This document shows positions 30,367-53,602 of a stretch of DNA of 64,000 bases, piece by piece. Both the position numbers and the translations under genes were made by a program. How positions within the stretch are numbered: the stretch's first letter is position 1; every line of letters begins with the position of its first letter. Location of the stretch: contig JAYWCB010000011.1 of assembly GCA_043780835.1 (NCBI GenBank), positions 26,767 to 90,766 of the forward strand, written 5' to 3'. Below the pieces are notes generated by a model. The model was not told the DNA's origin. It saw nothing but the letters and a program-made list of their open reading frames with translations, and did no database searches. Source of the DNA: Minisyncoccota bacterium (GTDB lineage: Bacteria; Patescibacteriota; Minisyncoccia; Phycocordibacterales; UBA2100).

Positions 30367-31806
30367 ATGCAATTCATTTTTCAATCTCGCGCACGTATTG
30401 GTATCGGCGGAATCGCCCTTATTGTGCTGCTTATCGCGCTCCACGCGTATGCGGCGGAAATTTCGAGTGTCAAAATTAGCGACGTAAAGCCCGACGCTGC
30501 GACCGTTTCCTGGACGACAGATAAAAACACCGATGCAACGATTAATTTCGGTTTGGACGAACGGTTCGGCACCGTTCGTGACAGCGCATTCGATAAAAAA
30601 GACCATACCCTCACCATTGATAGTCTCGAGCCGGCAACGACGTATCACTTCCGTGTGGTTTCCACAGATGCTGATGGCAACAAAAGTACCACCGCAGGCT
30701 TCGTGTTCACTACTAAAGATGATCAGAAGAAAATCAAGGAGCGGATCATCAAAGACATCAAAAAGATTACCGATCCGAAGGCTATTATTGAGATCAATGA
30801 TCAGGTCAAAGAGACAGCGGGTGATATTTTGAAACCACCGACGATTCTGGGACTGCCCCGTGTAAACGTAGACCAAACGAAGGCGGAAATTATCTGGACC
30901 ACCGATCGCGATTCGAGCTCGATGGTGTATCTGTCACCCGATAAAGACTACAACGGGGGATCGAGCGATTACACGATTGCGCAGGGCGATCCGAACGATG
31001 CTGTGTCCAAACACACGGTAGAGGTTATCGGACTCGATCCGTCAACCACGTACCACTTCAAAGTGGTCTCGAACGATTCAACGGGACTGACCGGAGAGTC
31101 TGGCGATGACACCTTTAAGACCAAATCCATCCTTCCTTCTGTACGAAATGTAAAAGTGTCTCGTATTCAGCAAACCACGGCCGTGATTTCTTGGGATACA
31201 AGTGGGGTACTCGCACGTGGCATCGTTGAATACACGAATACCCGCACCAAAGTTACGAAAGTTGCGGGAAGCTCTGTGTTTGCGGCACAGCAAAACGTGC
31301 AACTTGCAGATTTGGAGTTTGGCACGCGCTACAGTGCCCTTGTGCGCACGACCAACCAGGATGGCGACAACGCAGAGAGTACGCCGTTCCAGTTCATTAC
31401 GATACGCGACGTGATTGCTCCTGCGATCACCAAGGTGAAGAATGAATCGACACTCTTTCCGGGCGAAGACGTGAAGATCCAAACCATCATTGCGTGGGAG
31501 ACCGATGAGCCTGCCACGTGCCAGGTGTTCTACTCGCAAGGTCTTTCAACAGGCGGTTCCAATGCAGGTGCTGAGTCCACGCCGAAAGAGACAAATCCGC
31601 TCACATCGCACACGCAGGTGATCGTCGGGTTTACCCCGGCAACGGTGTATCAGTTTTGGGTCGTGTGCAACGACGAAGCGCTGAATGAGTCGCGCTCAGA
31701 AGATTTCGTATTAATCACACCGATCAAAGAGAAGAGTATTATCGACATCATTCTTCAAAACTTCCAAGGCACATTCGGGTGGGTCAACAACATCGGCAAG
31801 AAGTAG
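30367..31806 (+). CDS. Secreted protein with four fibronectin type III-like repeats
   Basis: Signal peptide MQFIFQSRARIGIGGIALIVLLIALHAYAA. Repeats match V.WTTD...s.v.yg.....Y......t.Y.fkVvs.D..GN: VSWTTDKNTDATINFG...TTYHFRVVSTDADGN, IIWTTDRDSSSMVYLSP...TTYHFKVVSNDSTG, VISWDTSG...TRYSALVRTTNQDGD, and IIAWETDEPATCQVFYS...VYQFWVVCNDEALN. Confidence 0.75.
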   Translation: MQFIFQSRARIGIGGIALIVLLIALHAYAAEISSVKISDVKPDAATVSWTTDKNTDATINFGLDERFGTVRDSAFDKKDHTLTIDSLEPATTYHFRVVSTDADGNKSTTAGFVFTTKDDQKKIKERIIKDIKKITDPKAIIEINDQVKETAGDILKPPTILGLPRVNVDQTKAEIIWTTDRDSSSMVYLSPDKDYNGGSSDYTIAQGDPNDAVSKHTVEVIGLDPSTTYHFKVVSNDSTGLTGESGDDTFKTKSILPSVRNVKVSRIQQTTAVISWDTSGVLARGIVEYTNTRTKVTKVAGSSVFAAQQNVQLADLEFGTRYSALVRTTNQDGDNAESTPFQFITIRDVIAPAITKVKNESTLFPGEDVKIQTIIAWETDEPATCQVFYSQGLSTGGSNAGAESTPKETNPLTSHTQVIVGFTPATVYQFWVVCNDEALNESRSEDFVLITPIKEKSIIDIILQNFQGTFGWVNNIGKK

Positions 31807-34541: not shown

Positions 34542-34586
34542 TTATCCACACGGGGCTAACGTATTGAAAGGCGACAGTGGTACGAT
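34542..34586 (+). promoter_or_regulatory. Candidate promoter: perfect DnaA-box 9-mer TTATCCACA plus extended -10 TGgTACGAT
   Basis: TTATCCACA (34542..34550) is followed 30 nt later by TACGAT (34581..34586), which is preceded by TG. The ATG at 34599 has an AAGG SD. Confidence 0.3.
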
Positions 34587-37587: not shown

Positions 37588-38727
37588 ATGCGTATGGCAC
37601 GTAAACCGCTCGTTGTTTCGGGAATTATTGTTGCATCGGCAATACTGTTCGGAGGCATGATACACATTGTTACTGCAGCGGATGTCCGCACATCGGTGAC
37701 CATGATTGTGTGTGGTGATGCGGTCGTGAGCCCATCCGGCGAGGCCTGTGACGACGGGACCAATCTGGGTGGATACGGTTCGACGACCGCGCAGCGTCGG
37801 TGCAATCCCGGGTGCCAATCTTTTGCGGAATACTGCGGCGACGGTGTGTTACAGGTGCGATTCAGTGAGCAATGCGACGACGGCAACACGATTGCAACTG
37901 ACCTCTGTTCGCTCACCTGTCGCACGCTTGCTCCTGCGGGTTCGACGCAGGTTTCCGGGTCGCCGACCGTCGGTTCGACGCCGTTTATTCCCGGAGCTTC
38001 TCCGGGCAACATTTCGTCTGAAACTAAAACGCGTGTGGTTTTGCGCGGAAAAGCATACCCCAATAGCACGGTGAGTATTTTGCTCGATGGCAAAGTAAAG
38101 GGTACAACCCTGGCCGATTCAAACGCTGATTTTCAATTCTCTTCGACCGATATTACCCCGGGTACCGCAACGTTCGGCTTTTCAGCCAAGGACGCAAAAG
38201 GTGTTGAATCGATCACGACGTCCGTGGTGTTTGATGTGGCTCAGAGCGCGGTATCGACGGTGGCAAACGTGTTCTTCCCGCCCACGATCTCAGTGAGTGA
38301 GCGACAAGTACCAAAAGGTGACCCATTGACCGTTTCAGGATATTCCGTGCCCAAAGCGTCGGTTTCAACCGAAATCGGGGGAGGTACGAAATCGGTACTG
38401 AGCGCGAATGCCGATGCGACGGGTGCGTGGGCGCTGCAAGTTGATACGAAGTCTCTCACTGACGGAATGCATACGGTGAAAGCGTTTTTCAAGCAGGATG
38501 GCGGCATACAGTCAGGGTTCGGTAAATCAATATCGTTTAGCGTCGGAGCCGGTGCGTTTGCTGATACGGGTTCGGCCGATCTCAACGGCGACCACAAAGT
38601 GAATCTGGTAGACTTTTCAATCTTCTTGCTCAAGTGGAACACGGATGATATTCAGGCCGATTTTAATGGCGACGGAACGGTAAACTTGGGAGACTTCTCA
38701 ATTATGTTGTTCAATTGGACCGGCTAG
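37588..38727 (+). CDS. Secreted protein: myxo-type Cys-rich repeats, Ig-like (Big) domains, C-terminal dockerin
   Basis: The signal anchor is followed by Cys-rich repeats (CGDAVVSPSGEACDDGTN...CNPGCQSFAEYCGDGVLQVRFSEQCDDGNTIATDLC), the pattern of Myxococcales-type disulfide repeats. Two Ig-like beta domains follow. The C-terminus ADLNGDHKVNLVDFSIFLLKWN...DFNGDGTVNLGDFSIMLFNW is a duplicated Ca-binding dockerin repeat. Confidence 0.65.
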   Translation: MRMARKPLVVSGIIVASAILFGGMIHIVTAADVRTSVTMIVCGDAVVSPSGEACDDGTNLGGYGSTTAQRRCNPGCQSFAEYCGDGVLQVRFSEQCDDGNTIATDLCSLTCRTLAPAGSTQVSGSPTVGSTPFIPGASPGNISSETKTRVVLRGKAYPNSTVSILLDGKVKGTTLADSNADFQFSSTDITPGTATFGFSAKDAKGVESITTSVVFDVAQSAVSTVANVFFPPTISVSERQVPKGDPLTVSGYSVPKASVSTEIGGGTKSVLSANADATGAWALQVDTKSLTDGMHTVKAFFKQDGGIQSGFGKSISFSVGAGAFADTGSADLNGDHKVNLVDFSIFLLKWNTDDIQADFNGDGTVNLGDFSIMLFNWTG

Positions 38728-38765
38728 ATCGATATATGCATACAAAAAACCGCTATACTACTCTT

Positions 38766-39695
38766 ATGTCACGTGCAATTACGATGTTTGTTGCGGTGGT
38801 AAGCATTTTTGCGCCGCTCACGGCCTCCGCTGCAATTTTGTATGTAAATCCCACGCAAGGTACGTACGGCGTGTCTGACACCTTTATTGCAGATGTTCGC
38901 CTCGATAATCAAAACGAATGCGTCAATGCTGCGCACGTAGAAATTCGCTATCCGACTGATGTGTTACGGGCGGTTGATTTCAGTAAGGGGAATTCGATCC
39001 TCAGTTTGTGGATTGAAGAGCCAAAAATCGATACCGAGAAGGGAATTATTACATTCTCCGGCGGAATTCCAGGAGGGTACTGCGGGCGTATTCCGGGGGA
39101 TCCCGTTCTTTCAAACGTATTGGGCAAAATCGTGTTCAGTGTCATTGCGACCGATAAAAGAAGTGCCACGGTTTCTATTGCTGACACCTCCGTGATGTAT
39201 CTCAACGACGGACAAGCAACGCCGGCAAAATTAGCGCTCCAGAGCGCGACGTATTTGATTTCGCAGACACCGCTTTCAGCAGCGAATCCATGGCTCTCCC
39301 AGGTCGGCGAAGACAAAACACCGCCCGATGCGTTCGTCATTTCGGTTGAATCAACACGCGGCGTTTTTGGCGGGAATTTTTATGCGGTTTTTGCCACCCA
39401 AGATAAGCAAAGCGGCGTTGATCACTACGAAATATTCGAACGAGGTACATGGCTACCCGTTACGAGTCCGCATGAACTCAAAGATCAAAAACTGATTGCG
39501 GAGGTGCAGATCAAAGCAATCGATAAAGCGGGCAATGAGCGCCTTGGCACGTACGTCACAGGTTCCGCGCCGCCTCGTGTTCCAAAAGAAGTGAACTACC
39601 CGATTTTGGTCGCAGTACTCATCGTGCTGCTCGCCCTCGGATTGTATATGTGGCATCGTGATCATACGCCCAGAATCATTCCGCCGAGTGCATGA
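38766..39695 (+). CDS. Secreted cohesin-domain protein with C-terminal TM anchor
   Basis: Trimmed to MSRAITMFVAVVSIFAPLTASAA. The cohesin-like domain is ILYVNPTQGTYGVSDTFIADVRLDNQNECVNAAHVEIRYPTDVLRAVDFSKGNSILSLWIEEPKIDTEKGIITFSGGIPGG, with a C-terminal TM (ILVAVLIVLLALGLYMW). Confidence 0.6.
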   Translation: MSRAITMFVAVVSIFAPLTASAAILYVNPTQGTYGVSDTFIADVRLDNQNECVNAAHVEIRYPTDVLRAVDFSKGNSILSLWIEEPKIDTEKGIITFSGGIPGGYCGRIPGDPVLSNVLGKIVFSVIATDKRSATVSIADTSVMYLNDGQATPAKLALQSATYLISQTPLSAANPWLSQVGEDKTPPDAFVISVESTRGVFGGNFYAVFATQDKQSGVDHYEIFERGTWLPVTSPHELKDQKLIAEVQIKAIDKAGNERLGTYVTGSAPPRVPKEVNYPILVAVLIVLLALGLYMWHRDHTPRIIPPSA

Positions 39696-40678
39696 TGAAA
39701 CAATTTCTCTTTGTTGCGCTGGTACTCATCCTTACTCCGTCGATTTCGTACGCTGCTGATGGATCACTGTACCTCTGGCCGGCACGCGACATCCATGCAA
39801 TCGGAGACATCTTCGAAGTAGCGGTGCGTGCAAATACAGACGGTGTCTCCGCCAACGCCGCGGAAGCCGACATCGCGTTTAACACCAACGCGCTCGCTGT
39901 CGAGAGTATTTCGACTACCGGTTCGGTGTTATCGTTCTGGCCGACGGCAGCCACATTTTCTAACGACAAAGGCACAATCCGATTTTCCGGAACCGCAGCG
40001 GGAAGTTTTAATTCCGATGCTGCGACACTCGTCTCGATAAAATTCCGCGCTAAAAGTAATGTTCCTGGGGATGTGCATATCGATTCAGGTGCACTGCTTT
40101 TAAATGATGCGCGCGCGACAAACATAATTGCGAGTATGCATTCCGGCCTGTACACCGTGACCGCGCGAGCGCTTCCTCCTGCAGCAGAATCGATACCGCT
40201 TGCGGCTACGACCACTGAGGCGACTGCGCCTGTGCCCGAAGTAAAAGGCGTCGCAATTCAAGTGCCAACAATAAAAGCGTACGACGATCACATCTTGAGT
40301 GGTGAGCGTATTGCGCTGCAAGGTACGGCTGCCCCCAGTTCGAAGCTTTCGGTTTTTCTGCAGTACGGGGACGATGCGCCGCGGGAAAGTGCAGTGCTTT
40401 CCACGAGCGATGGCACATTTATATATGTTTCCGCCGAACCCGCCCATCGCGGTGTCTATCACGCGTGGGCTGTGGTTCAGACGGCTCGCAATCAACTTTC
40501 GTCAGATAAAATTGTGATCAGTGCACAGTCGCGCGGGCTTTCCGCTGCGGGCGAATCGATTGGGCCGATCCTCACGCGTGCGTTACCGTACGTGGTGCTT
40601 CTTATAGGAGCGGTTCTATTGCTCGGCTATTTTTATAATCGTAAATCGCGCGCTGGCGTTACTGGCGCATCCGTGTAA
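39692..40678 (+). CDS. Secreted cohesin-domain protein with C-terminal TM anchor
   Basis: Signal peptide MMKQFLFVALVLILTPSISYA. Cohesin-like pattern: LYLWPARDIHAIGDIFEVAVRANTDGVSANAAEADIAFNTNALAVESISTTGSVLSFWPTAATFSNDKGTIRFSGTAAG. C-terminal TM LPYVVLLIGAVLLLGYFY. Its start overlaps the stop of the preceding gene. Confidence 0.6.
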   Translation: MMKQFLFVALVLILTPSISYAADGSLYLWPARDIHAIGDIFEVAVRANTDGVSANAAEADIAFNTNALAVESISTTGSVLSFWPTAATFSNDKGTIRFSGTAAGSFNSDAATLVSIKFRAKSNVPGDVHIDSGALLLNDARATNIIASMHSGLYTVTARALPPAAESIPLAATTTEATAPVPEVKGVAIQVPTIKAYDDHILSGERIALQGTAAPSSKLSVFLQYGDDAPRESAVLSTSDGTFIYVSAEPAHRGVYHAWAVVQTARNQLSSDKIVISAQSRGLSAAGESIGPILTRALPYVVLLIGAVLLLGYFYNRKSRAGVTGASV

Positions 40679-41441
40679 AGAAAATGGAAAGGTCGGCAAG
40701 CGTAACAGCGCCATCGCGATCGAGATCAAATTTTGAGTTATACGGTGCAATCATTTGAAACGCCATGATGGAAAGATCGACAACGTTGATTTTGCCGTCG
40801 CCATTAAAATCGATTGTCGGGGGCGCCAGGGTTTCATCATTCATATGACCTCCAGACGAGGCAACCGCGCGTGTTGTTTCGGGAATATCAAAGCTCAGCA
40901 CCCGCTTACTGCTCGGCACCTCTGACCCTCGTCCGTCTGCCGCAAAAATTTGAGCGTCTTTAAAAAACAATTCCGCGGTCCCGGATTTTTTTGCTTTGAC
41001 GGTGAGTGTAACGACCGTACCCACACCGCTCAAACCGCCGGGTGCGAGCGTGCCGCCGCTGAAATGCACTTCTCCGATACCTTCCTTAATAGTTGTCTCT
41101 TCGGTCCATAAATCCAGAAATGATTGTTCTTTGCTGATACCAACAACCTCGAGCGTGTCTTCCGGAAATTTTATAGTTGCACCGACCGTATTGACAGGAG
41201 TTTTCGTGTTGATACGCACATCGATGTCTGTTGTTTCTCCAACTTTGAGAGTGGACGAACTATGCGGAGAAAAGTAGAGCACGGTATCGGTACTGACAGA
41301 CGCGGCGCTACCGGCAATGAGTGTCACAATCGAGCCGCCACGATTGATGAGTACGGTAGTCGATGCGATGAGGAGCACGAGAACCGCGACTGCGTGAAAG
41401 AGGCCTATGGTATGTACAAAATCAACGACCCGCCGAAACAT
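40659..41441 (-). CDS. Membrane-anchored protein with one cohesin domain and a C-terminal type-I-like dockerin
   Basis: N-terminal TM. Cohesin-like domain: VLYFSPHSSSTLKVGETTDIDVRINTKTPVNTVGATIKFPEDTLEVVGISKEQSFLDLW...GEVHFSGGTLAPGG. Dockerin repeats: DFNGDGKINVVDLSIMAF and DLDRDGAVTLADLSIFF. It is convergent with 39692..40678, with a 20-nt 3' overlap. Confidence 0.7.
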   Translation of the reverse strand: MFRRVVDFVHTIGLFHAVAVLVLLIASTTVLINRGGSIVTLIAGSAASVSTDTVLYFSPHSSSTLKVGETTDIDVRINTKTPVNTVGATIKFPEDTLEVVGISKEQSFLDLWTEETTIKEGIGEVHFSGGTLAPGGLSGVGTVVTLTVKAKKSGTAELFFKDAQIFAADGRGSEVPSSKRVLSFDIPETTRAVASSGGHMNDETLAPPTIDFNGDGKINVVDLSIMAFQMIAPYNSKFDLDRDGAVTLADLSIFFTRMRQ

Positions 41442-41456
41442 ACAAAAAGTCTAACA

Positions 41457-42233
41457 TTATTCCGTATTGGTCGGGGTAGCAAATACTTCAGGTGTGTTTA
41501 CACGCAAAATTGTGCTCGTTGCAACATAGCCGTCACTTAAAAAATGGATCATGCGAATGTGGGCGCCCTCATCCACCCACACATCCACAGTCCCTGTAGA
41601 GATAATGCCGATCAGTGCCTTTAAAGGGCCGGTCGCTTTCGTGGTCGACTTTTTCGAAATCGTGAACGTATATACCGAGTACGTGGTGCTTGCGATTGTA
41701 TGAAGTGTCGATTTTCCGATAAGCGACAGATACGATCCGTTTTGGCCTAAAAGCGCGAGGTTGTCGAGAATTGGACCGGGAACCGCAATATCAACAAATC
41801 GCTCAGGTATTGCCTCTGCTTTGAAATGTCTCCATTTCGCACCGTAGGGGATCGTTTTACGTAAGAGAGCGCTCGTTGTTTGGATTTTCACGTATACGTC
41901 GTCATTGAGTGAGAGGTGTTCGAGCGTAAAGACATGCGTGTTCTTTGGCGGTCGCATATCGAGCAGGGTGAGCGTTGTGGTGGCGATCGATCCGTAGCGA
42001 TGCGCATCAAAATCGAGTCTATAGAGCCCAGAAATGTCGATTGTACGTTGCTCCATCTCGGCATGCGTATCATCCTGCATTTCGTACGAATGAAGTCCTT
42101 GCACCTCATTGAGAGCCGTTTGGAGGCGTTCATCATAGGCGGGTGCGATCGCGTGGCGATACAGCAGAAATGCGCCCGCAACGATCGTAAGCGCGGTAAT
42201 CGGTATCAATACCGTGAGGAGTCGATTTTTCAT
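41457..42233 (-). CDS. Hypothetical membrane-anchored protein
   Basis: Trimmed to MKNRLLTVLIPITALTIVAGAFLLY (signal anchor). A roughly 230-aa extracytoplasmic domain of unknown family. Confidence 0.5.
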   Translation of the reverse strand: MKNRLLTVLIPITALTIVAGAFLLYRHAIAPAYDERLQTALNEVQGLHSYEMQDDTHAEMEQRTIDISGLYRLDFDAHRYGSIATTTLTLLDMRPPKNTHVFTLEHLSLNDDVYVKIQTTSALLRKTIPYGAKWRHFKAEAIPERFVDIAVPGPILDNLALLGQNGSYLSLIGKSTLHTIASTTYSVYTFTISKKSTTKATGPLKALIGIISTGTVDVWVDEGAHIRMIHFLSDGYVATSTILRVNTPEVFATPTNTE

Positions 42234-42400
42234 GAGCAATGCATATTCAGTGTATAGGTGATCTGCGCCCCCACAAGTAAAAAATGTGCTCAAGAGTGCA
42301 AAGGGATTCGTGCACTCATTTGATTGATACCCAAAAACTCACGAAAGTTGTCCACACCGAAAAATAGGCTAAAAACCTAGGGATTATACAATTGCTCTAT

Positions 42401-42458
42401 GAGATCTCGACCCCCGAGATTGCATAAATAAGCCAAACTCGACCCTCGAGATTTGCAT
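42401..42458 (+). promoter_or_regulatory. Two ~21-bp direct repeats, each containing a palindrome, immediately upstream of the HTH gene (candidate operators)
   Basis: ATCTCGACCCCCGAGATTGCATA (42404..) and ACTCGACCCTCGAGATTTGCATA (42438..). Inner palindromes are ATCTCG-N5-CGAGAT and CTCGA-N3-TCGAG. The second copy abuts the start codon region at 42453..42461. Confidence 0.45.
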
Positions 42459-42845
42459 ATGATGAACAAAAAAGACGAATACATATCTCTTCGCGAAGCG
42501 GCAGCGATTGCTGGGTATACACCGGACTATGTCGGGCAACTCATTCGCAGCGGCAAAATTCCAGGAAAGCAGGTGTTTGCGAACGTTGCATGGATGACTA
42601 CCGAGGAAGCCGTGCGGAGCTACGCGGGGCAAAAGAAAGGAAAAAACTCCGGAAAAGATGTGATTGCCCCCACAATATTCGAAACCCTCCAGCGTGAGAT
42701 CGACTCGCCTCGAATCGTAAAGCGTCTTTCGATTGCGCTCATCGTGATGAGTGTCGCATTTATGCTCTTGCTCTTCTATATCTTTTCAACGTCGCTCGAC
42801 CAGCGACTCAATCAGCGCGCGATACAGCGGCTCGAGCAAACATAA
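42459..42845 (+). CDS. HTH_17 (excisionase/MerR-like) DNA-binding domain protein with C-terminal TM helix
   Basis: The N-terminal ISLREAAAIAGYTPDYVGQLIRSGKIPGKQV matches the HTH_17/excisionase-type helix-turn-helix. C-terminal TM IALIVMSVAFMLLLFYIF. The ORF track begins at TTG 42453; ATG 42459 was chosen. The stop lies 4 nt before the next giant gene. Confidence 0.6.
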   Translation: MMNKKDEYISLREAAAIAGYTPDYVGQLIRSGKIPGKQVFANVAWMTTEEAVRSYAGQKKGKNSGKDVIAPTIFETLQREIDSPRIVKRLSIALIVMSVAFMLLLFYIFSTSLDQRLNQRAIQRLEQT

Positions 42846-42849
42846 AATC

Positions 42850-45800
42850 ATGAACACACACAGTCAATCATGGGTACGCATGATTCGGGAGACAACGCGA
42901 CTGGCCGCGATTCTTTCATGTACGGTATTTGTGCTCGGATCGTTTGCTCCGGTGGCGCTCGCTGCAACCGGTGTACCACGAATCATGAACTACCAGGGAC
43001 GTCTCATGAATGCGGGTGGATCATTGCTTGGTGGTGCAGGAACTGATTACTGCGTACGTTTTTCACTGTATGACAATGCGTCGGTTGGATCAGGGGCAAA
43101 ATTGTGGCCGTCAACCGCACCGTCAACCATGACTGTTGTTGTAAAAAACGGCGTGTTCAACGCGGGCGTCGGTGATACCAATGCCGGCGGCGACACGCTC
43201 AACTTTAATTTTGAAGACACCGATACCGCATATCTCAATGTGGAGGTTGCAACAAAAGTTGGTCCGACCTGTGCTCCGGGCGATGGTGTAGAAGTTTTTG
43301 AAAACCTTTCGCCGCGACAGCGCGTAACCGCCTCGGGATATGCAATTAATTCCGCCACCCTCAACGGAAAGAGCGGGAGTTACTATCTCGCAAATTCCTA
43401 TGCAACCACGAGCGCCGCATACAACCTCAACACGTACGACAAAGGATATTTCTTTTCCACCACGTCGGTTACCTATTGGGACACCACACAGTTTCGTTGG
43501 GCAACAACGAGTTCTGATGCATGGTTTGCAACGAAAACAACAGACGGCCTAACCCAAGGTTCAACAAATCTTTATTACTCGAACAATCTCGTCAACGGTT
43601 TCATTGCAGGATCTTCTACTATCCCAAAGTCTTATACAAACAATGCATATACCGGTACGAACTCGTTTACCGGTGATGTAACACTCGCAAATGCGACGAC
43701 TTCTAATTTCAATATCACGAACACGATCTCCGGAGCCGGACTCATATCGTGCTCGAGTTCGACAGATAAAGTGATATGGAATGCAAGCACTCGTCAGTTT
43801 GGCTGCGGGGCAGACGCAGGTGCGGGCGGCGGAATTACCGCACTCGGTGCGCAGTATTCGGTATTCCAAACGGGCGCATCGCAAACATTTGCAACCTCAT
43901 CTGACACCAATATCGGAATCACCATAACCTCATCGGGAGACACGCACACGTTTGCGCCAAAGTGGTTCGGATCACTTGCTGCCGGTCGCGGCGGTACCGG
44001 TATTACATCGATTTCTCAAAACGGGATATTGATCGGCGGAGCAGGTAACACGTGGGGACAAGTCGCAACATCATCGCTTGGGCTACCCACCTATGGTGAT
44101 CTCGGGGCATACCTAGGTCTCGCTGCGTGGTATGCAACGACGACTGACGCACTTGCCGAAGGCTCAAACAATAAATACTTTACGACCAACCGTGTTGCCG
44201 GCGTGCTCGCAGGAACCACCACTGATGCAATTGCTGAAGGTGCAACAAACAAGTACTATACGGACCCACGCGTGCAAACCTACCTCAATGGTGTGTCAAA
44301 AGGGTTTTTCTTCTCCACCACATCGACCGATTTCTGGAAAACCCAAAACAATTTCTTCTCGACCACGTCCGCGTCGCACTTTTCTTCGCTTGGCCTCGCG
44401 TTTTCGACAACCTCAAGTGCATTCTTCCTGTCGCAAAATCAGGGCGCTGCGTTTTCTACCACATCTACCGACTACTATGTGGGAGCGACAACATCGATTC
44501 CTAAAACATACACAAACAATACCTATAGCGGCACCAATTCATTCCAAAATGTTTCCGCAACGGGTGCAACGACCACATCGTCGTACACGGCAACTGCAAG
44601 TTCTACGAATCTCTTCTCGAATCTCGCAACGATCGGATCGCTGATTTCCGGCGCAATTACCGGCAACACACTGACTGCAACCAACGCGACCACCACGGTA
44701 CTCTCTGCAGGCACCGCATCGACTTCGAATCTCACGATCTCGAACATTCAGAACTCGATGCTATACACCGGCCCGGGTGGCGTTGTAACTGCGGCTAGTA
44801 TTTCAGGCCCGCTTTCATTTAGCGCAGGTGCGCTTTCAATTTCGCAGGCAAACGCGTCAACAAATGGATACCTTTCATCCGGTGATTGGAATGCGTTCAA
44901 TAGCCGACTCTCCACGTCTTCGTTGGGGACGATCGACAAGGGTTATTTCTTCTCCACAACCTCAACCGACTTCTGGAAAACGCAGAATAATTTCTTCTCC
45001 ACCACGTCCGCGTCGCATTTTTCTTCGCTTGGCCTCGCGTTCTCCACAACCTCTAGCGCATTCTTCCTGTCGCAAAATCAGGGCGCCGCGTTTTCTACGA
45101 CATCCGCGTCGCACTTTGCGTCTGTCGGTCTCGCACACTCAACGACATCAGATGCGTATTTCCTTTCACAAAATCAGGGGAGCGCGTACTCGACCACATC
45201 AGAGAACTACTATCAGCACTCGTCATCAACTGTTGCAACAACCTATAAAAGTAATACGTTCACCGGTACGAACGGTTTCCAGAATATTTCGGCAACGGGT
45301 GCAACAACCACATCGCTTTCAACCGGAATCGCTTCCACGACAAACCTCACGATCTCCGCGTTGCAAAATTCGATGCTCTACACGGGACCGGGCGGCATCG
45401 TGTCGGCTGCGAGTATCACAGGGCCGCTTTTGTTTAGCGCCGGCACGCTTTCGATGCAGCAATCAGGCGGCACGCTGAGCGGGTATCTGTCTTCGTCGGA
45501 TTGGAACTCGTTCAACAGTCGACTCTCTACCTCGACACTCGGGCTTATTGATAAAGGATTCTTTTATTCAACGACATCTGAAGATGCATACATTGGTGCA
45601 ACCACATCAATACCGAAAACATATACCGCAAACACATTTATTGCACTGAACAGCTTTGCAAACATAACCGCAACCGGTGCTACAACCACGTCGCTCTTTT
45701 CCACGACCGCATCGTCCACAAATATATTCGCAAACGCGGCTCGCTTCGGTTCGCTCGGCGCGTTCTCGCTCGTCGGATCAGTCGCAGCTGCAGCGAACAG

Positions 45801-47694
45801 TATTACGGGGATCAGCATCGCATCGACGACTGACTTATGGATTTCAAATATTCGTGACGGATTACTTGCGACAAACGCACAGGGGAATGTGGTCGCCTCA
45901 TCCACACCGACCGCAGCGAGCTTCAATGCAACAAGCAATACGGTCGCATCACAACTCCCATATGCATCCACCACCGCAGTCTCCGTATTGCAGCAACTTT
46001 CAATCGGTGCCGCCAACGGAACGATCTTTCAGGGTGCTGTTGCCGGCACGTCGACCGTTGCAGGAGTCATCAACGTAACGGGCACGAACTCCACTTCAAC
46101 ATTTTCGGGTGGAGTAGCGGCAACCCGTTTGAATCTCACGTCGGGTACGTCAACCGCTGCGAACGGATTTAGTATCGCAAACGGCTGCTATTCTATTAAC
46201 GGTGTATGCGAACTGTCTTCAGTAACTGCGGCAAACTCGACGATCACGGTCACTCCGGGTAATGGCACAGCTGCTATTTCGCTGAATCTTGCAAACCCGA
46301 ATGTGTGGTCTGGTCTACAGCAATTTGGTAATGCAACAACAAGCCTACTCGAAGCCACGCAGTTCTATGCACGAACCATCCAATCCACATCTACGAATGC
46401 ACTCATCCTTAAATCAAACTTTTCTTCAACGGCGGGCCTCACCTTCGGTAGTACATCAACTCCGCAGGTGCTCGGTATCGATACGATCAATAATCGCGTA
46501 ACACTCGGCACAGGTGGTGCGAATCCGAGCCTCCTTGTGTTCGATACAAAAAACACGTTGGGTGATCCCGTTGGGGTCGCGGGTGCGGAATACTACAATA
46601 GTAATAGTGGTGCTTTTCGCTGCTTTGCATCAAGTTGGGTGACCTGTGGGGGACAGGCCGCCAGCTCAACCGGCGATGTACAGTTCAGAAATGTTGACGG
46701 CTCATTCACAGCCACGTCCAACTTCAACTGGTCGCTCGCAAGTAATAGCCTTTCAATTAAAGGTGTTGCCGGGCAAACGGCCGGTATTTTCACTATTGCC
46801 TCGTCGACCGGCGTTGCGTTATTCGGTGTAAGTGCAAACGGAGTTCTGGAATTCGCGACGACCACGGATCCTGCAACGCCGTCCCTTGGTTTGGATGTCT
46901 ACGCAAAAACAATTGCGACCCGTGCCTTCATTGCCACAAAGGATCAAAACGGTCTTGTCGGATCGCTGCAACCGCTCATGGCCCGTAACAAAGTCGGTTT
47001 CTGGAATCCGGCGGGCAATAGCGTAAGCGCTCCGGGCGTCTTTGGATTTCCGGCATTTACGACAACGGGCACGGTAACGGCGCGCAGCGTTGCTACTACG
47101 AACCTCGCGAACCGGCTTCGGCGTATCGGTTATGTGAGCACTGCCGTTGCGGGTAACTTTGCAGAAACGCGCGTAGCTGTCGCGCAATATTCAATCGGCA
47201 CGGGCACCGGAGTCGGCGGCTTTACAATGATTGCGCGATTCGTCCCGTCAGATGCTGCCGCGGTGGCGGGTGAACGATTTTTTCTCGGTCTCACGTCTAC
47301 AACGATCGCTGCGACCAACGTTGAACCCACGACGCTCACGAATTCTATCGGCATTGCGCAAATCAGTACGTCTACGAACTTGTTCCTGGTGTACGGAGGA
47401 AGTGTTCCTCAAACACCGATTGATCTTGGTGCGAACTTTCCGGCCGCAGGTCTATCGACTGACGCGTACGAGCTCAGTCTGTTTTCAAGTCCCAATGCCT
47501 CCACGACAATCGGATACGAAGTGACGCGTATCAATACCGGTGACACGGTTTCCGGAACGCTCACGGGTGCAGGCGGGACGGCGATTCCACTTTCGACAAC
47601 ACTCCTTACCTTTAAAGCGTGGAAAACCAACAATGCGACGGCTGCAGCAGCGGCGTTCGACCTCTCATCTATTTACTTAGAAACCGATAATTAA
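42850..47694 (+). CDS. Giant fibrous Ser/Thr/Gly-rich surface protein (1,614 aa) with signal peptide and internal tandem repeats
   Basis: Trimmed to MNTHSQSW...AAILSCTVFVLGSFAPVALAATG (signal peptide). The conserved-looking N-terminal domain (IMNYQGRLMNAGG...CVRFSLYDNASVGSGAKLWPS...VVVKNGVFNAGVGD...YLNVEVA...LSPRQRVTASGYAINSATLNG) is followed by very long S/T/G/A/N-rich fibrous sequence. Confidence 0.8.
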   Translation: MNTHSQSWVRMIRETTRLAAILSCTVFVLGSFAPVALAATGVPRIMNYQGRLMNAGGSLLGGAGTDYCVRFSLYDNASVGSGAKLWPSTAPSTMTVVVKNGVFNAGVGDTNAGGDTLNFNFEDTDTAYLNVEVATKVGPTCAPGDGVEVFENLSPRQRVTASGYAINSATLNGKSGSYYLANSYATTSAAYNLNTYDKGYFFSTTSVTYWDTTQFRWATTSSDAWFATKTTDGLTQGSTNLYYSNNLVNGFIAGSSTIPKSYTNNAYTGTNSFTGDVTLANATTSNFNITNTISGAGLISCSSSTDKVIWNASTRQFGCGADAGAGGGITALGAQYSVFQTGASQTFATSSDTNIGITITSSGDTHTFAPKWFGSLAAGRGGTGITSISQNGILIGGAGNTWGQVATSSLGLPTYGDLGAYLGLAAWYATTTDALAEGSNNKYFTTNRVAGVLAGTTTDAIAEGATNKYYTDPRVQTYLNGVSKGFFFSTTSTDFWKTQNNFFSTTSASHFSSLGLAFSTTSSAFFLSQNQGAAFSTTSTDYYVGATTSIPKTYTNNTYSGTNSFQNVSATGATTTSSYTATASSTNLFSNLATIGSLISGAITGNTLTATNATTTVLSAGTASTSNLTISNIQNSMLYTGPGGVVTAASISGPLSFSAGALSISQANASTNGYLSSGDWNAFNSRLSTSSLGTIDKGYFFSTTSTDFWKTQNNFFSTTSASHFSSLGLAFSTTSSAFFLSQNQGAAFSTTSASHFASVGLAHSTTSDAYFLSQNQGSAYSTTSENYYQHSSSTVATTYKSNTFTGTNGFQNISATGATTTSLSTGIASTTNLTISALQNSMLYTGPGGIVSAASITGPLLFSAGTLSMQQSGGTLSGYLSSSDWNSFNSRLSTSTLGLIDKGFFYSTTSEDAYIGATTSIPKTYTANTFIALNSFANITATGATTTSLFSTTASSTNIFANAARFGSLGAFSLVGSVAAAANSITGISIASTTDLWISNIRDGLLATNAQGNVVASSTPTAASFNATSNTVASQLPYASTTAVSVLQQLSIGAANGTIFQGAVAGTSTVAGVINVTGTNSTSTFSGGVAATRLNLTSGTSTAANGFSIANGCYSINGVCELSSVTAANSTITVTPGNGTAAISLNLANPNVWSGLQQFGNATTSLLEATQFYARTIQSTSTNALILKSNFSSTAGLTFGSTSTPQVLGIDTINNRVTLGTGGANPSLLVFDTKNTLGDPVGVAGAEYYNSNSGAFRCFASSWVTCGGQAASSTGDVQFRNVDGSFTATSNFNWSLASNSLSIKGVAGQTAGIFTIASSTGVALFGVSANGVLEFATTTDPATPSLGLDVYAKTIATRAFIATKDQNGLVGSLQPLMARNKVGFWNPAGNSVSAPGVFGFPAFTTTGTVTARSVATTNLANRLRRIGYVSTAVAGNFAETRVAVAQYSIGTGTGVGGFTMIARFVPSDAAAVAGERFFLGLTSTTIAATNVEPTTLTNSIGIAQISTSTNLFLVYGGSVPQTPIDLGANFPAAGLSTDAYELSLFSSPNASTTIGYEVTRINTGDTVSGTLTGAGGTAIPLSTTLLTFKAWKTNNATAAAAAFDLSSIYLETDN
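44290..45700 (+). repeat. 645-bp intragenic tandem duplication (2 full copies plus a partial) in the 42850..47694 gene
   Basis: Blocks at 44306..44460 and 44950..45105 are about 93% identical at nucleotide level. They encode (K/I)GFFFSTTSTDFWKTQNNFFSTTSASHFSSLGLAFSTTSSAFFLSQNQGAAFSTTS twice; a third, more diverged copy starts near 45545. Confidence 0.7.
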
Positions 47695-49488: not shown

Positions 49489-50826
49489 ATGCACATCTCG
49501 CAGAACATAAAACGAATCGTGCTTGGCGCATGTAGTGCGCTCATGATCGTTTCTATTTCCGCATCGTATGTATTTGCGCAGGAGCTCACGAGTTCGAGTT
49601 TTAGCCTCAACAACAACGGTTTTACCGCATGGGGCGGGTATTCTACAACGAGCAATTTTTCTTCGTTTGGCAGCGAGGCGCAGCCGGGCAGCGGGGAATC
49701 ATCGAGTGCGAGTTTCTCGCTTGCGAGCGGGTATCTCTATCCAGTCGATACCAGCCCGCTCGCGACGCAGAATTGGAAATGGTTTGATGATTCAACGAAT
49801 TTCACACCGACGATTGCGCTCGCCGGCGAAAACGTGTCACCGTCAAATGTTGGATTCGATGATCCCTTGAAGCTTCGCATTACGGTGAAGGATATTGGCG
49901 GGTCCGGTGTAACAGGACTCAAGCTTCGCTTGCAATACGCAACGTCGTCCGACTTTTCCGCCGGCGCAATCTTTGTTGCTGAGCAGGGGCAGTGTAATTT
50001 GACAATCTGGTGCTACGCGGATGGCGCTGGAGTTGATAATACTGTCATTAGCGATACTGTTTTGTCTGATCCCGATGCGTGTTCCGGAGGATTGGGTACC
50101 GGATGCGGCACCTACAATGAATCCGGCACCACCACATCAACTTTTTATCACTCCCCGGGAAAAAAGACCGAATACGAGTTCACGTTGAAACAAATTCTGG
50201 GCGTTCAGAGTACGGTGTATTTCTTTCGTCTGGTAGACGCGAGCACCGGTATTCCCGTGCCGCTCAACACGGGGGCCACGTATCCGAGTCTGATGATTAA
50301 CGGTGCGTCGTTAACATTTTCTATTGGCGGACTGACTTCCGGCACCTCAACCGAAGGCGTGACGACTGACATTGCAACGTCGCCCACGACTATTAGTTTT
50401 GGAACGTTGCTTCTCAACACACCAAGAATCGCCGCGCATCGATTGACGGTGACGACAAACGCAACGTCGGGGTACAAAATTTATACCTATCAGCGACAAG
50501 GGCTTTTGAACCAAAGCGCGCGAGAGCTTCCACCCGTAAATACCACTAATAGCGCGCCGTCCGGCTGGGCGTCTGCGTGCACGTCGACCTCGACCGGATG
50601 CTACGGTTATCACTCCGGTCAGGACGTGCTAGAAGGAGGCTCAACGCGCTTTGCAGCGGATGACAGCTATGCGCAATTTACGTCGTCGCCCGACGAAGTC
50701 GCGTTTAGTGCAGGTCCCGCAACAAATGCAATGACCGACATGGTCTATAAAATTGAAGCGAAAGATTTACAAGACTCTGGCGTGTACGAAAGCACGATTG
50801 TCTATATCGCAACCCCCGTTTTCTAA
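49489..50826 (+). CDS. Secreted protein, family A (paralog of 53804..54955); WxL-like C-terminal region (tentative)
   Basis: Signal peptide MHISQNIKRIVLGACSALMIVSISASYVFA. The C-terminal part has APSGWASACT and the terminal YKIEAKDLQDSGVYESTIVYIATPVF, which parallels YKVEIGSLQEAGSDYTNILTYVATPIF in the paralog. Confidence 0.6.
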   Translation: MHISQNIKRIVLGACSALMIVSISASYVFAQELTSSSFSLNNNGFTAWGGYSTTSNFSSFGSEAQPGSGESSSASFSLASGYLYPVDTSPLATQNWKWFDDSTNFTPTIALAGENVSPSNVGFDDPLKLRITVKDIGGSGVTGLKLRLQYATSSDFSAGAIFVAEQGQCNLTIWCYADGAGVDNTVISDTVLSDPDACSGGLGTGCGTYNESGTTTSTFYHSPGKKTEYEFTLKQILGVQSTVYFFRLVDASTGIPVPLNTGATYPSLMINGASLTFSIGGLTSGTSTEGVTTDIATSPTTISFGTLLLNTPRIAAHRLTVTTNATSGYKIYTYQRQGLLNQSARELPPVNTTNSAPSGWASACTSTSTGCYGYHSGQDVLEGGSTRFAADDSYAQFTSSPDEVAFSAGPATNAMTDMVYKIEAKDLQDSGVYESTIVYIATPVF

Positions 50827-50858
50827 ACTGTGCATAAAAATACAATACTTTTCTTGCT

Positions 50859-52214
50859 ATGCTTGCGATATTCGTCTCTATGACATTGAAGAAAACGATA
50901 CTCCCGTTTTTTGTGTTGTGTATTCTTGCTGCGGGGCTTCTTCCATTCGTCGTGCGGGCGGACTCTGATCTCACCGTTTTGCCCATTGTTGTTGATGAAA
51001 AAGCAAAAGCACGCGATATCTTGAAAGAATCGGTCACGATCACAAATAATAGTGCGCGCGTGCTCCAAATATATCCGTCGGTCAACGACGTAAAACCGCA
51101 GGAAGGCCAAAGGGCATTTATTGAGGCACAAAGCGGCACCGAACGCTCTGACTCATTGGCCAATTGGATAGAAATCTCTCGCGGAGTCATTGAATTGAAG
51201 CCGAAAGAGTCAAAAGAGATTCCGTTTGTCATTCGTGTGAATCTCAATGCGGTCGCAGGCACCTATCACGCTGACGTTTCTTTCTATGAAGGCGGTAACC
51301 GTGAGGACGCCGAGAAAACGCACCCGCTCTCAGTCGTGACCGTAAACACCGAGGTGCAGGCGAATATAAAAGAGTCAATGCAGTTGAATAAATTTGTTAC
51401 GGATAGTTTTTTCTTCTCCGGAGATGACGTGTTGTTCAACTATCAGCTAGAGAATATCGGTAACCAGGAATTGAAACCGAAAGGGGAGATTCGTATTTAT
51501 GATCGCAAGGGCCACGAGGTTGCGACGGTGCCGGTGAACCCGGACGGCAAAAGCTTTACACCCGATCAGGCTGCACAGCTTGCAAGTGCATGGAGCGCAG
51601 CCAGAGGGTTCGGTAAATTCAAGGCGTTTCTCAATATAGATTACGGCAACGGTAACGGCTCGCTGCAGGATACTGTCTTTTTCTGGATTATTCCATGGCA
51701 GCAGTTGCTCGCAATTGTGGTGGTGAGCATCATTGGGATCATTGTGTCTGCGTTGTATTTCCACCGATGGCTTGAACAGCGTCACATGCAGCGCTTTGCG
51801 CTCGCAACCGGAATGCCAATGGCCGGAGCGGGTGTTGCAGCCATGCAAGCACCTCCTGGGATGCTCACACAGAAAAGACCCCCGCACATGACGACCGTCA
51901 TGCCGGTAATTCCAAAACAGGAGAAAAAGAGCTTCTTTTCACGATTTCGTCGCGCGAATAAGGCGCCCATCGTTGCAAGTGTGCAAAACACTTCGCCAAT
52001 TCCCACCGTGGTGCCGGCAGCTGCGCTGCTCACACCACCTGTGCATAATGCCGATCAATCACAAATTATTGTCCACGGGGAGGAGTCGGCATCTGCTCCG
52101 GTGCAGACGCTCGCGCCACAATCCAATCGCACCATCAATCTGTCGTCGACCAACATGGGCACGTCGCCGCAAAAAAACCCGGGGCGCGTGATAAATCTAA
52201 AAAACGGCTCATGA
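50859..52214 (+). CDS. Secreted protein, family B (DUF916-like architecture): signal peptide, beta-rich domain, C-terminal TM and long cytoplasmic tail
   Basis: Signal peptide (ILPFFVLCILAAGLLPFVVRA). The domain (LTVLPIVVDEKAKARDILKESVTITNNSARVLQIYPSVNDV...SLANWIEISRGVIELKPKESKEIPFVIRVNLNAVAGTYHADVSF) is followed by TM (LLAIVVVSIIGIIVSALYF) and a roughly 140-aa tail. Confidence 0.6.
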   Translation: MLAIFVSMTLKKTILPFFVLCILAAGLLPFVVRADSDLTVLPIVVDEKAKARDILKESVTITNNSARVLQIYPSVNDVKPQEGQRAFIEAQSGTERSDSLANWIEISRGVIELKPKESKEIPFVIRVNLNAVAGTYHADVSFYEGGNREDAEKTHPLSVVTVNTEVQANIKESMQLNKFVTDSFFFSGDDVLFNYQLENIGNQELKPKGEIRIYDRKGHEVATVPVNPDGKSFTPDQAAQLASAWSAARGFGKFKAFLNIDYGNGNGSLQDTVFFWIIPWQQLLAIVVVSIIGIIVSALYFHRWLEQRHMQRFALATGMPMAGAGVAAMQAPPGMLTQKRPPHMTTVMPVIPKQEKKSFFSRFRRANKAPIVASVQNTSPIPTVVPAAALLTPPVHNADQSQIIVHGEESASAPVQTLAPQSNRTINLSSTNMGTSPQKNPGRVINLKNGS

Positions 52215-53536
52215 TGCACAGTTTTCGCACGGTCTTTTTTACTGCACTCATCCTGTGCACATGGCTTTTCGGCATCACGAGTGTGTCCGCCCAGGAATCA
52301 CTCTCTGTTACGGTCACGCCGCCACTGTTTCAGCTCAGTATCGGTCCCGGTGAATCATGGACGAGCACGATCAAAGTTATCAACAATAATTCGTATGACG
52401 TACAGTATGCGCCGCAGGTCGTCGATTTTGAAGCGCAAGGGGAGACCGGCCAGGGAAAGTTTGTGCCGCTCATTAATGCGTTCGGAGGTGGCGAACAAAG
52501 CAGTAATTCACTCGGGAGCTGGATAGAAATTTCCAAAGATCCGGTGCTTATACGTTCTGGACAGAGCGCGCAACTCAATTTTACGGTCCATGTACCGCAA
52601 AACGCCGAACCGGGCGGGCATTACGCTGCGATCATGGTCGGACCCCACGAAGCAGATACCGCACAAGGATCGCACATGAAAATATCGAGCTATGTTACGT
52701 CGCTTATCATGGTGCGAATCAAGGGGGATATTGTGGAAAGCGGGCGTATTCGTGAATTCACGACTGATAGATCGCTCTATCAGAAGCCGGAAGCGCAGTT
52801 TGTTCTGCGATTCGAAAACACCGGCAATACGCACTTGCGCCCACAGGGTCTTATTACGCTTCACAACATGTGGGGAAAAGAGCGCGGTCAAGTGCTCATT
52901 AATGAGAAGAGTAATTTCGGCAACGTGTTACCGCACTCAATTCGCAAGTTCGAATTCACGTGGAATGGTGAAGACAGCCTATTTGATATCGGTTTATATA
53001 GTGCGGTCGTTACGCTCAACTATGGCGACGATGCGAAGCAAAATGCTTCCGCAACAAGTTATTTTTGGGTGGTCCCGGTGGTGCCGGTGACTATCACGCT
53101 CATCATAGTGCTTAGTATTGTGCTTATTCTAATGTGGTTTATACGACGGTATGTACGCCGCGCGCTCTCACTCGAGCATCTTCATGTCGCGGCTGGCGCA
53201 CACCCGAATGTGCCGGATCGCCAGGAACCGCCTATGATTGAACACGTCTCTACGCTTCGCGCGCTCGTGCAGCCCATAAAAGACGGTGTTGTTGACCTTC
53301 GAAGCGTCGGCACTGTTATTGAACAGAATGGGGTAGTCGCGACACCTACATATATTCGTCCGCTTACATTTGGCGGTTTTGTTCGCAAATACCGACTTTT
53401 CTTTGCTTTTTTACTGGTGCTCGCGGTACTTCTCGTTGGTATATCGCTCTATTTCAAGGCAGTGCTCGTGTCGCACCGTGATTTCCAAATCAAAGCAATC
53501 GCACCCGCGAGCAGCTCATCTGCCTCAGTTCGCTAG
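52211..53536 (+). CDS. Secreted protein, family B paralog (DUF916-like architecture)
   Basis: Signal peptide. The domain (LSVTVTPPLFQLSIGPGESWTSTIKVINNNSYDVQYAPQVVDF...GSWIEISKDPVLIRSGQSAQLNFTVHVPQNAEPGGHYAAIMVGP) is collinear with 50859 and 55094. TM VVPVTITLIIVLSIVLILMWF. Its start overlaps the preceding stop. Confidence 0.6.
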   Translation: MMHSFRTVFFTALILCTWLFGITSVSAQESLSVTVTPPLFQLSIGPGESWTSTIKVINNNSYDVQYAPQVVDFEAQGETGQGKFVPLINAFGGGEQSSNSLGSWIEISKDPVLIRSGQSAQLNFTVHVPQNAEPGGHYAAIMVGPHEADTAQGSHMKISSYVTSLIMVRIKGDIVESGRIREFTTDRSLYQKPEAQFVLRFENTGNTHLRPQGLITLHNMWGKERGQVLINEKSNFGNVLPHSIRKFEFTWNGEDSLFDIGLYSAVVTLNYGDDAKQNASATSYFWVVPVVPVTITLIIVLSIVLILMWFIRRYVRRALSLEHLHVAAGAHPNVPDRQEPPMIEHVSTLRALVQPIKDGVVDLRSVGTVIEQNGVVATPTYIRPLTFGGFVRKYRLFFAFLLVLAVLLVGISLYFKAVLVSHRDFQIKAIAPASSSSASVR

Positions 53537-53602
53537 TTTTCCACAGGATATCAACCGGGTTTTCCACCGACATATCCTCTGATCGAGACCGTTATCCACA
53601 TG
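53537..53602 (+). promoter_or_regulatory. Cluster of three DnaA-box-like 9-mers (TTTTCCACA, TTTTCCACC, perfect TTATCCACA) with an embedded inverted repeat
   Basis: TTTTCCACA at 53537..53545, TTTTCCACC at 53560..53568 and TTATCCACA at 53592..53600. AGGATAT and ATATCCT (53547..53553 and 53572..53578) form a 7-bp inverted repeat around the second box. A TATACT -10-like hexamer lies at 53643..53648 upstream of the gene at 53804. Confidence 0.35.

Follow-up and report, generated by a model that had tools for sequence, protein, structure and literature searches.

A stretch of 64,000 nucleotides (nt) from the genome of a Minisyncoccota bacterium (contig JAYWCB010000011.1, positions 26,767 to 90,766; "the window" in what follows) contains a small gene whose product, of 128 amino acids (aa), carries a DNA-binding-type domain and a transmembrane segment in one polypeptide, both of which are conserved in its family. 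This helix-turn-helix transmembrane (HTH-TM) protein is encoded directly upstream of a giant gene, and two copies of a palindrome are found between a promoter-like hexamer and its start codon (Table 1). The arrangement recurs in related bacteria, where the two proteins may even be fused, and it probably reflects a regulator that acts on its own operon.

The HTH-TM gene, its promoter and its product

Two repeats, CTCGACCCCCGAGAT at 42406-42420 and CTCGACCCTCGAGAT at 42438-42452 (32 nt from start to start), are identical at 15/15 specified positions; their first nucleotides are 53 and 21 nt ahead of the ATG (42459). The preliminary description of this DNA had placed two repeats of about 21 base pairs (bp), each with an internal palindrome, close to -55 and -20, and their position upstream of the gene is borne out (-53 and -21). 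The palindrome also stands, but its extent does not, as the core is a wider and more symmetric 17-bp palindrome, ATCTCG-N5-CGAGAT, which is perfect at 42404-42420 (the distal site, O1) and has one mismatch at 42436-42452 (the proximal site, O2). Since the 3′ extension TTGCATA is common to the closest relatives only, the 21-bp repeat would be a lineage-specific trimming around this core. By window statistics alone, the pair is not compelling, because at least two matches at two mismatches were obtained in 14 of 100 shuffles; its significance derives instead from its conservation across relatives. With up to two mismatches, no more intergenic sites were found in the window, where a single coding-region match exists (at 5873), and matches with three mismatches are at the chance level (41 vs 36.7 expected). 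The preliminary description had proposed a search for further copies as a check, and had held that their absence would count against its proposal of autoregulation; this absence weighs little, however, because a dedicated autoregulator needs no other sites.

From 5′ to 3′, the region consists of a DnaA-box-like nonamer, 30 nt, the -10-like hexamer TACAAT, 11 nt, O1, a 15-nt gap, O2, 6 nt and the ATG, and the centres of O1 and O2 are 32 bp apart, which corresponds to about three helical turns. From this arrangement, we infer that transcription starts near 42399, in which case O1 would occupy approximately +5 to +21 and O2 +37 to +53, and the two sites would consequently cover the start site and the leader. 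On the minus strand, a promoter-like element, TCGAGA-16-TATAAT (42410 to 42383; 10/12 matches), has its -35 inside O1 and its -10 overlapping that of the plus strand, so that the divergent 258-aa gene could share the operator and is possibly co-regulated with the HTH-TM operon. An invertible promoter or phase-variation switch was considered and rejected, since O1 and O2 are direct copies, at a distance of 32 bp, that enclose no promoter, and no recombinase is encoded close by.

The HTH-TM protein was modelled with AlphaFold2 from 76 sequences (mean predicted local distance difference test, pLDDT, 78; 77-88 across the winged-helix region). The model contains a winged helix-turn-helix (HTH) at aa 8-60 (nt 42480-42638), with the predicted order beta-alpha-alpha-beta-beta-alpha (strands E8-10, E36-39 and E44-48; helices H11-18, H22-31 and H49-60), followed by a low-confidence linker that includes residues 62-71 and by a long helix at aa 84-127; no coiled-coil domain is predicted. 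A single hydrophobic segment (aa 90-108, nt 42726-42782; Kyte-Doolittle mean 2.68) leaves about 20 aa beyond the membrane, and an extracytoplasmic sensor domain is, in consequence of this short tail, absent from the split form, in which the HTH-TM and giant proteins are separate polypeptides. Neither the Pfam scan nor the AlphaFold2 model contains an effector-binding domain. In the PDB, the best Foldseek matches (probability about 1.0) are the RacA-DNA complex (5i44), the Xis protein of mycobacteriophage Pukovnik, BldC and MerR proteins, with a root-mean-square deviation of 1.7-2.4 Å over 47-53 columns, and with TM-scores of 0.66-0.80, relative to the target, for the Xis/BldC class.

At the level of sequence profiles, the protein matches HTH_17 (PF12728) with 18 bits (E = 0.0035, profile positions 1-30 of 51), below the Pfam gathering cut-off of 27 bits, and the same profile is matched at E ≤ 0.01 by 71 of 76 family members, the best of them at 8e-7. 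Its PHROG matches are to excisionase and small-terminase families, none of the four central proteins was matched in NCBIfam, and neither a second copy of the family nor a soluble MerR-like gene was found in the window. As modelled, the 128-aa protein is a divergent winged helix of the excisionase/MerR type on a C-terminal membrane anchor. The open reading frame (ORF), its single transmembrane helix and the 4-nt gap that separates it from the 1,614-aa ORF were all correctly anticipated in the preliminary description. The same text had recognised an excisionase/MerR-like HTH; here, the fold is upheld by AlphaFold2, Foldseek and the 71 matching relatives, but the protein's own HTH_17 score falls short. 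A failed HTH_17 match had been named there as a ground for rejection, and it carries little weight because the evidence for the fold does not depend on that score.

Conservation of the palindrome and of the promoter layout

A scan of one genome per species found relatives of the HTH-TM protein in 286 genomes, and the best 80 loci (L001-L080), which are overwhelmingly from Patescibacteria with labels of the Paceibacteria or Parcubacteria type, were compared. A word-indexed search returned more than 200 relatives, while an exhaustive profile search returned 4,702 representatives at E ≤ 1e-3, or 870 at E ≤ 1e-10. There are 17 invariant positions in the family, mostly within GYxxDYxGQLIRxGKxPGxQV...W.TT, and the residues of the predicted recognition helix (D23, Y24, G26, Q27, L28, I29 and R30) are invariant across it.

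The palindrome is tied to the gene. Counted with at most one mismatch over the 12 arm positions, the 81 loci contain 123 sites in the 250 nt that precede the gene, where 0.04 would be expected; the remaining ~843 kb hold five sites, four of these at -258 to -289. When two mismatches are allowed, at least one site is present in 80/81 loci and at least two in 69/81. The distances between palindromes have modes at 24-25, 31-32, 34-35 and 42-44 bp, the centre of the proximal site is mostly at -15 to -18 from the start codon, and most of the 81 loci have a TAnAAT hexamer 4-17 nt 5′ of the distal site (modes 4 and 11). The consensus is ATCTCGR-N3-YCGAGAT, and the arms are more than 90% invariant at most positions, although the proteins are only about 40% identical. 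In a metagenome scan for the exact 17-mer, which occurs in at least 120 loci, 20 of the matches listed have the gene family adjoining. The other 100 listed matches are mostly inside long ORFs of high-GC contigs (median 64%), which points to chance, and two low-GC, non-coding ones (L121 and L157) correspond to the same promoter cut by a contig end. Among the matches listed, a single low-GC, non-coding exact 17-mer has no family gene (L161, around position 895), and it may be due to chance or represent a rare extra site. No sign of a wider regulon was seen in the window, in the 843 kb of related loci or in the listed metagenome matches. On these counts, the palindrome is conserved across a whole bacterial class and is almost exclusive to the HTH-TM promoter.

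The DnaA-box-like nonamer, in its perfect form, is also conserved at this promoter. The motif TTRTCCACA has five copies in the window (0.86 expected), and in 51/81 loci it is present in the 300 nt that precede the homologous gene, with 52 occurrences in these ~24 kb vs 20 in the other 819 kb. In the fused relatives described below, the nonamer is located 1-3 nt 5′ of a TTGACA -35. Additional copies at 34542-34550 and 53592-53600 were noted, and at least two other genes on the plus strand of the window have the nonamer in front of them. The nonamer may mark a class of promoters in Paceibacteria that depends on DnaA or on some other factor. A replication origin at the locus was rejected, as there is no GC-skew switch at 42.3 kb and the nonamer is also present at other promoters, and tblastn with E. 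coli DnaA as the query detected no dnaA-like sequence in the window or in L001-L080.

Pairing and fusion with giant proteins

The 1,614-aa protein encoded after the HTH-TM gene is Thr/Ser-rich and fibrous, with an N-terminal signal peptide (...VALA/ATGVPRIMNYQGRL). To judge from these features and from the spacing of the genes, it is probably secreted, and its gene is probably co-transcribed and translationally coupled with the HTH-TM gene. In nearly all loci, a large ORF follows the HTH gene on the same strand, overlapping it or separated by no more than 25 nt in 61/76, and it reaches at least 500 aa in 66/76, many being cut by the 6-kb flank. The downstream proteins comprise at least three unrelated N-terminal types, all with a signal peptide or a membrane anchor; the type present in the window ("GVPKILNYQGRL...") was found in about 40 loci, and homology over the N-terminal 400 aa extends to 41. 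For most of its length, the giant protein has no Pfam or PDB relatives, and a tandem-repeat analysis of its gene gave nothing notable at the DNA level. Its C-terminal ~280 aa share 50-64% identity with members of a very widespread family, about 344 aa long, that contain PF18454 (Mtd_N), a domain named after the N-terminus of the major tropism determinant of phages; this suggests a receptor-binding tip on a Thr/Ser-rich fibre. Such a phage receptor-binding-like tip seems to be common to the cellular giant protein and to small, possibly phage-encoded, proteins.

The association is even closer in some relatives. Two tandem HTH copies are present in about one third (51) of the best 150 representatives, and in many of these double-HTH proteins a single membrane helix connects the HTH copies to a very large protein, the fusions being of at least 1,000 aa in 17 cases, with a maximum of 4,161 aa, and continuous ORFs on their contigs (for instance, proteins P0126, P0166, P0232, P0138, P0159 and P0184, among others, and loci L201-L206, L105, L136 and L188). 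The promoter grammar is kept in the fused loci, namely TTWTCCACA, 1-3 nt, a TTGACA-like -35, a TATAAT-like -10 and the palindrome. Exactly one palindrome is found in 11/11 double-HTH loci for which DNA is available, and at least two in 79/96 single-HTH loci (Fisher p = 2.5e-8, uncorrected for shared ancestry). In this set, therefore, palindrome number and the count of HTH domains in a polypeptide vary together. One of the fused loci (L205) has a second perfect ATCTCG-N5-CGAGAT at +193 to +209, in the coding region between the HTH copies, where about 6e-4 would be expected per 10 kb. Additionally, a divergent gene for a soluble MerR/HTH_17 protein of 70-80 aa (the size of BldC) is located upstream of three fused double-HTH giant genes (Table 1), with no convincing counterpart in the window or in L001-L080, where only L055 gave a weak match.

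The surroundings of the operon are those of a surface-protein region with housekeeping genes (ligA, gatA, those of a signal peptidase and a release factor, RF, and ftsEX), and no integrase or transposase was found among the ~38 window ORFs scanned. The region is rich in surface proteins of the cohesin/dockerin, Ig-like and WxL-interacting-protein types. The divergent 258-aa gene keeps its position in 25 loci, and its product gave no family matches in Pfam, NCBIfam or PHROG. It is part of a synteny block upstream of the operon (window 37588-42233) that includes genes of 328, 260 and 258 aa and recurs in 25-28 loci, while genes of 445, 451 and 441 aa at 49489-53536 recur downstream in 5-11 loci. 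The window also contains an ORF of 5,884 aa (11558-29212, plus strand) that has neither an HTH-TM partner nor an upstream palindrome.

Table 1. Coordinates of the features discussed (positions in the window, except for the last three rows, which refer to the loci named)
Feature	Position	Strand	Remarks
Intergenic region between the divergent 258-aa gene and the 128-aa gene	42294-42458		
DnaA-box-like nonamer TTGTCCACA	42348..42356	+	Promoter-upstream element, 30 nt 5′ of the -10-like hexamer
-10-like hexamer TACAAT	42387..42392	+	11 nt 5′ of O1
Distal palindrome O1, ATCTCGACCCCCGAGAT	42404..42420	.	12/12 arm positions; putative operator, about +5 to +21
Proximal palindrome O2, AACTCGACCCTCGAGAT	42436..42452	.	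11/12 arm positions; centre 15 nt before the ATG
128-aa HTH-TM protein gene	42459..42845	+	TAA stop
1,614-aa giant protein gene	42850..47694	+	ATG 4 nt after the HTH-TM stop
C-terminal domain of the giant protein	46858..47691	+	aa 1337-1613; phrog_13925, E = 8e-25
258-aa membrane-anchored protein gene	41457..42233	-	Divergent; shares the intergenic region with the HTH-TM gene; synteny block
328-aa gene	39692-40678	+	Synteny block
260-aa gene	40659-41441	-	Dockerin-containing; synteny block
Cohesin, dockerin, Big_13, fn3 and WxLIP_PGBD proteins	9950-11443, 30343-31806, 37588-38727, 55037-56158, 57551-59266		Around the 5,884-aa ORF
Soluble MerR/HTH_17 gene, L201	1822-2034	-	
Soluble MerR/HTH_17 gene, L202	1530-1745	-	
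Soluble MerR/HTH_17 gene, L205	918-1160	-	

A candidate autoregulator and its alternatives

We consider it probable (about 0.6) that the HTH-TM protein is a membrane-tethered autoregulator of the giant-protein operon that would bind the two 17-bp palindromes at its own promoter. The preliminary description had already suggested an autoregulated, membrane-tethered factor in control of the giant gene, and this proposal is the one best supported by the class-wide and promoter-specific palindromes, by their proximity to the -10, by the coupling or fusion to giant genes and by the covariation of sites and HTH domains. In particular, the palindromes may be linked to the HTH because they adjoin its gene and are almost exclusive to it, because the invariant recognition helix parallels the conserved arms and because their numbers covary. 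Repressor sites classically lie just downstream of the -10.

In the proposed mechanism, a single-pass, tail-anchored regulator would bind O1 and O2, between the -10 and its own start codon, through its cytoplasmic winged helix of the excisionase/MerR type. Each palindrome would be held by a dimer, joined by the conserved membrane or juxtamembrane helix, and, with half-site centres 11 bp apart, the two domains would enter successive major grooves. Given that the 32 bp between sites represent about three turns, the dimers on O1 and O2 would be on one face of the DNA, and the occupancy of approximately +5 to +53 would block initiation or promoter escape, producing negative autoregulation of a bicistronic operon that yields the regulator together with a giant secreted fibre or adhesin, a very costly product. 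The membrane anchor would tie the regulator to the giant protein; in fact, the existence of HTH-giant fusions suggests that the proteins of the split form associate in the membrane and act as one unit. Repression would then probably report the amount or the assembly state of the giant protein. In the ultra-small cells of the Candidate Phyla Radiation (CPR), the nucleoid is never far from the membrane and, consequently, membrane tethering would cost little.

Several points weigh against this proposal. Dimerisation is assumed, and proteins of the HTH_17/excisionase type, such as Xis and BldC, usually bind direct repeats as monomers or head-to-tail multimers. A protein that combines an HTH with a transmembrane segment need not bind DNA at all, as illustrated by RodZ, whose HTH binds MreB. 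The HTH_17 score of the 128-aa protein itself is under the Pfam threshold, and the family profile found no solved structure related by sequence in the PDB, where its only matches were spurious ones to membrane helices. The ~20-aa extracytoplasmic tail of the split form gives no evident sensing mechanism. The proximal site is where a ribosome-binding site would be and the leader has a stable predicted fold (z = -6.1), so that a role in translation is possible. Finally, the scan for sites covered the window and the related loci, and distant extra sites may exist elsewhere in the genomes.

A related and more tentative idea, possible though rather less than even in our estimation, is that the HTH module is the cytoplasmic end of a giant trans-envelope device, in which the fibre would bind its own promoter and the proteins of the split form would associate in the membrane. 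Two versions of it can be envisaged. In the first, the device would be a contact sensor, and the attachment of the episymbiont through the phage-receptor-binding-like tip would be coupled directly to transcription. In the second, the nascent N-terminal HTH would capture the promoter that has just been transcribed, providing a cis-acting, co-translational feedback as well as a tether; the gene would be pinned to the membrane for export, and a costly gene would be limited to a counted number of transcription rounds.

It has also to be considered that the protein could be a DNA-membrane tether instead of a regulator, pinning the promoter of its giant gene to the membrane, with the result that the very long mRNA would be translated there as its product is exported (transertion), or that the chromosome would be positioned. 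RacA provides the best structural match in its complex with DNA and, as a group, RacA, RocS and RicO couple DNA binding by a MerR-type winged helix to membrane attachment, as predicted here for the HTH-TM protein. RacA recognises a GC-rich palindrome. The fusion of the HTH to giant exported proteins and the DnaA-box-like element that adjoins the palindromes would suit a tether as well. However, the anchor of RacA, RocS and RicO is an amphipathic helix or DivIVA, whereas that of the HTH-TM protein is an integral membrane helix; in RocS, a transmembrane domain can replace the amphipathic helix (bioRxiv 10.64898/2026.03.06.710092). These proteins also have a coiled-coil oligomerisation domain that is not predicted here, and the family profile detected no RacA-type chain in the PDB at E ≤ 10. 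RacA-type sites are dispersed around the origin. In the sequences scanned, the putative sites of the HTH-TM protein were seen at its own promoter (two in 64 kb, and almost none elsewhere in 843 kb of related loci), 4-17 nt from the -10, which is a regulatory position and not that of a dispersed, centromere-like array; neither the GC skew nor the search for dnaA-like sequences pointed to an origin at the locus. A tether in place of a regulator is thus doubtful, but tethering and repression are not mutually exclusive and could coexist.

We regard as unlikely that the palindromes are bound by another factor and that the HTH of the HTH-TM protein serves for protein contact, as in RodZ, or for non-specific DNA binding. 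The soluble MerR/HTH_17 proteins encoded near L201, L202 and L205 would be possible binders at those loci, but the lack of a convincing counterpart in the window and in L001-L080 does not favour such a role elsewhere. Furthermore, the motif is tied to the HTH-TM family alone, its copy number tracks the number of HTH domains of the adjacent protein and the invariance of the recognition helix parallels that of the arms.

The palindromes are favoured as DNA sites for a protein over the stem of an RNA hairpin that, in the 5′ leader, would control translation or mRNA stability by masking the ribosome-binding region. They are within the inferred leader; in many loci, 6-10 nt separate the end of the proximal site from the ATG, and the leader RNA has a predicted fold of -19.4 kcal/mol, although the z-score of this fold weighs little because any palindromic repeat gives a strong one. 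The sequence of the arms is kept, however, beyond what mere pairing demands, and their changes are one-sided in 112 cases vs two-sided in 8 (for instance, A3 faces G15 in 24 sites). In the centre, 42 sites have CCC and 31 have the reverse-complement triplet, GGG, which argues that the element is used in both orientations and would be meaningless for a loop, and the distance from the site to the ATG ranges from about 4 to 106 nt in the fused loci. Taking together the conserved arms, the one-sided changes and the two orientations of the centre, we find an RNA element very improbable.

Finally, the preliminary description had offered as an alternative that the protein was the remnant excisionase (recombination directionality factor) of a decayed mobile element, with the repeats as leftover att-type sites, and this can be dismissed, despite the excisionase-like HTH_17 fold and the PHROG matches to excisionases and small terminases, because no integrase or transposase is present among the scanned ORFs (as that text had itself conceded for integrases), the neighbours are housekeeping genes, synteny with surface-protein genes extends to 25-41 loci across the class, the membrane helix is conserved and may lead into giant proteins, and the family has 870 representatives at E ≤ 1e-10.

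With respect to known systems, transmembrane transcription regulators form an established class of wide distribution, in which single-pass forms are the commonest (PMC10269533), and term searches of the text of that survey returned neither HTH_17 nor Patescibacteria. The HTH-TM protein resembles ToxR, TcpP, CadC and VtrA in its one-component design, with a cytoplasmic N-terminal DNA-binding domain, a single membrane helix and the (here inferred) regulation of nearby genes. However, the ToxR-type proteins have an OmpR-type domain instead of a winged helix of the excisionase/MerR HTH_17 type, and their sites are upstream direct repeats for activation, whereas the palindromes described here are downstream of the -10, in a repressor-like position. 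The "sensor" also differs, as it would be reduced to ~20 aa outside the membrane in the split form and would consist of a surface fibre of 1,000-4,000 aa in the fused relatives. HigX, a membrane-bound LytTR protein of Caulobacter, has no obvious periplasmic domain and regulates the promoter of its own operon together with cell-envelope genes (PMC13384398). Both it and the HTH-TM protein would therefore be membrane-embedded factors without an obvious external domain that control their own promoter (by inference in the latter), but HigX has a LytTR domain, four N-terminal membrane helices and a multi-promoter regulon, and is unrelated in sequence and fold.

Among proteins with a similar fold, BldC and the phage/ICE excisionases Xis and RdfS, of the HTH_17 class, are also short proteins built around a single, small winged-helix DNA-binding module. 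They are soluble and monomeric, and bind direct repeats as head-to-tail multimers (PMC5859096). The HTH-TM protein differs from them in its putative site, a two-fold symmetric palindrome, in its membrane helix and in the lack of a recombinase partner. Classical MerR proteins share with it a winged helix followed by a long helix, as well as palindromic operators (putative in our case). MerR operators lie inside an over-long -35/-10 spacer of 19-20 bp and act by DNA distortion. By contrast, the HTH-TM sites are 4-17 nt downstream of the -10, there is no effector-binding domain and the long helix is the membrane segment. Since defining traits of the ToxR, RacA and classical MerR families were looked for and the HTH-TM family does not show them, it is outside these families, and also outside HTH_17 at the Pfam threshold. 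As far as can be judged from sequence, the new elements are the combination of an HTH_17/MerR-like fold, in place of one of the OmpR, XRE or LytTR types, with a palindrome downstream of the -10, the obligate pairing or fusion with giant proteins and the class-wide spread in the CPR, and literature searches yielded no account of the family, of its motif or of the layout of its promoter.

Most Patescibacteria (the CPR) have not been cultured, very few regulators can be recognised in them and, to our knowledge, almost nothing is known about the control of their giant surface proteins, which are thought to mediate attachment to the host. The module described here supplies a class-wide family, with its 870 representatives, a defined 17-bp candidate operator and a fixed promoter layout. 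Because all of them are known at the level of sequence, assays of DNA binding are feasible in vitro or in a heterologous host and do not require the organism to be cultivated. In addition, the DnaA-box-like element suggests that promoters in these genomes may be under a further and more general level of control. If the promoter-binding role is correct, the domains fused to extracellular proteins of 1,000-4,000 aa would constitute a giant transmembrane transcription factor, an unusual architecture that bears on how signals or dosage information may cross the envelope in minimal cells.

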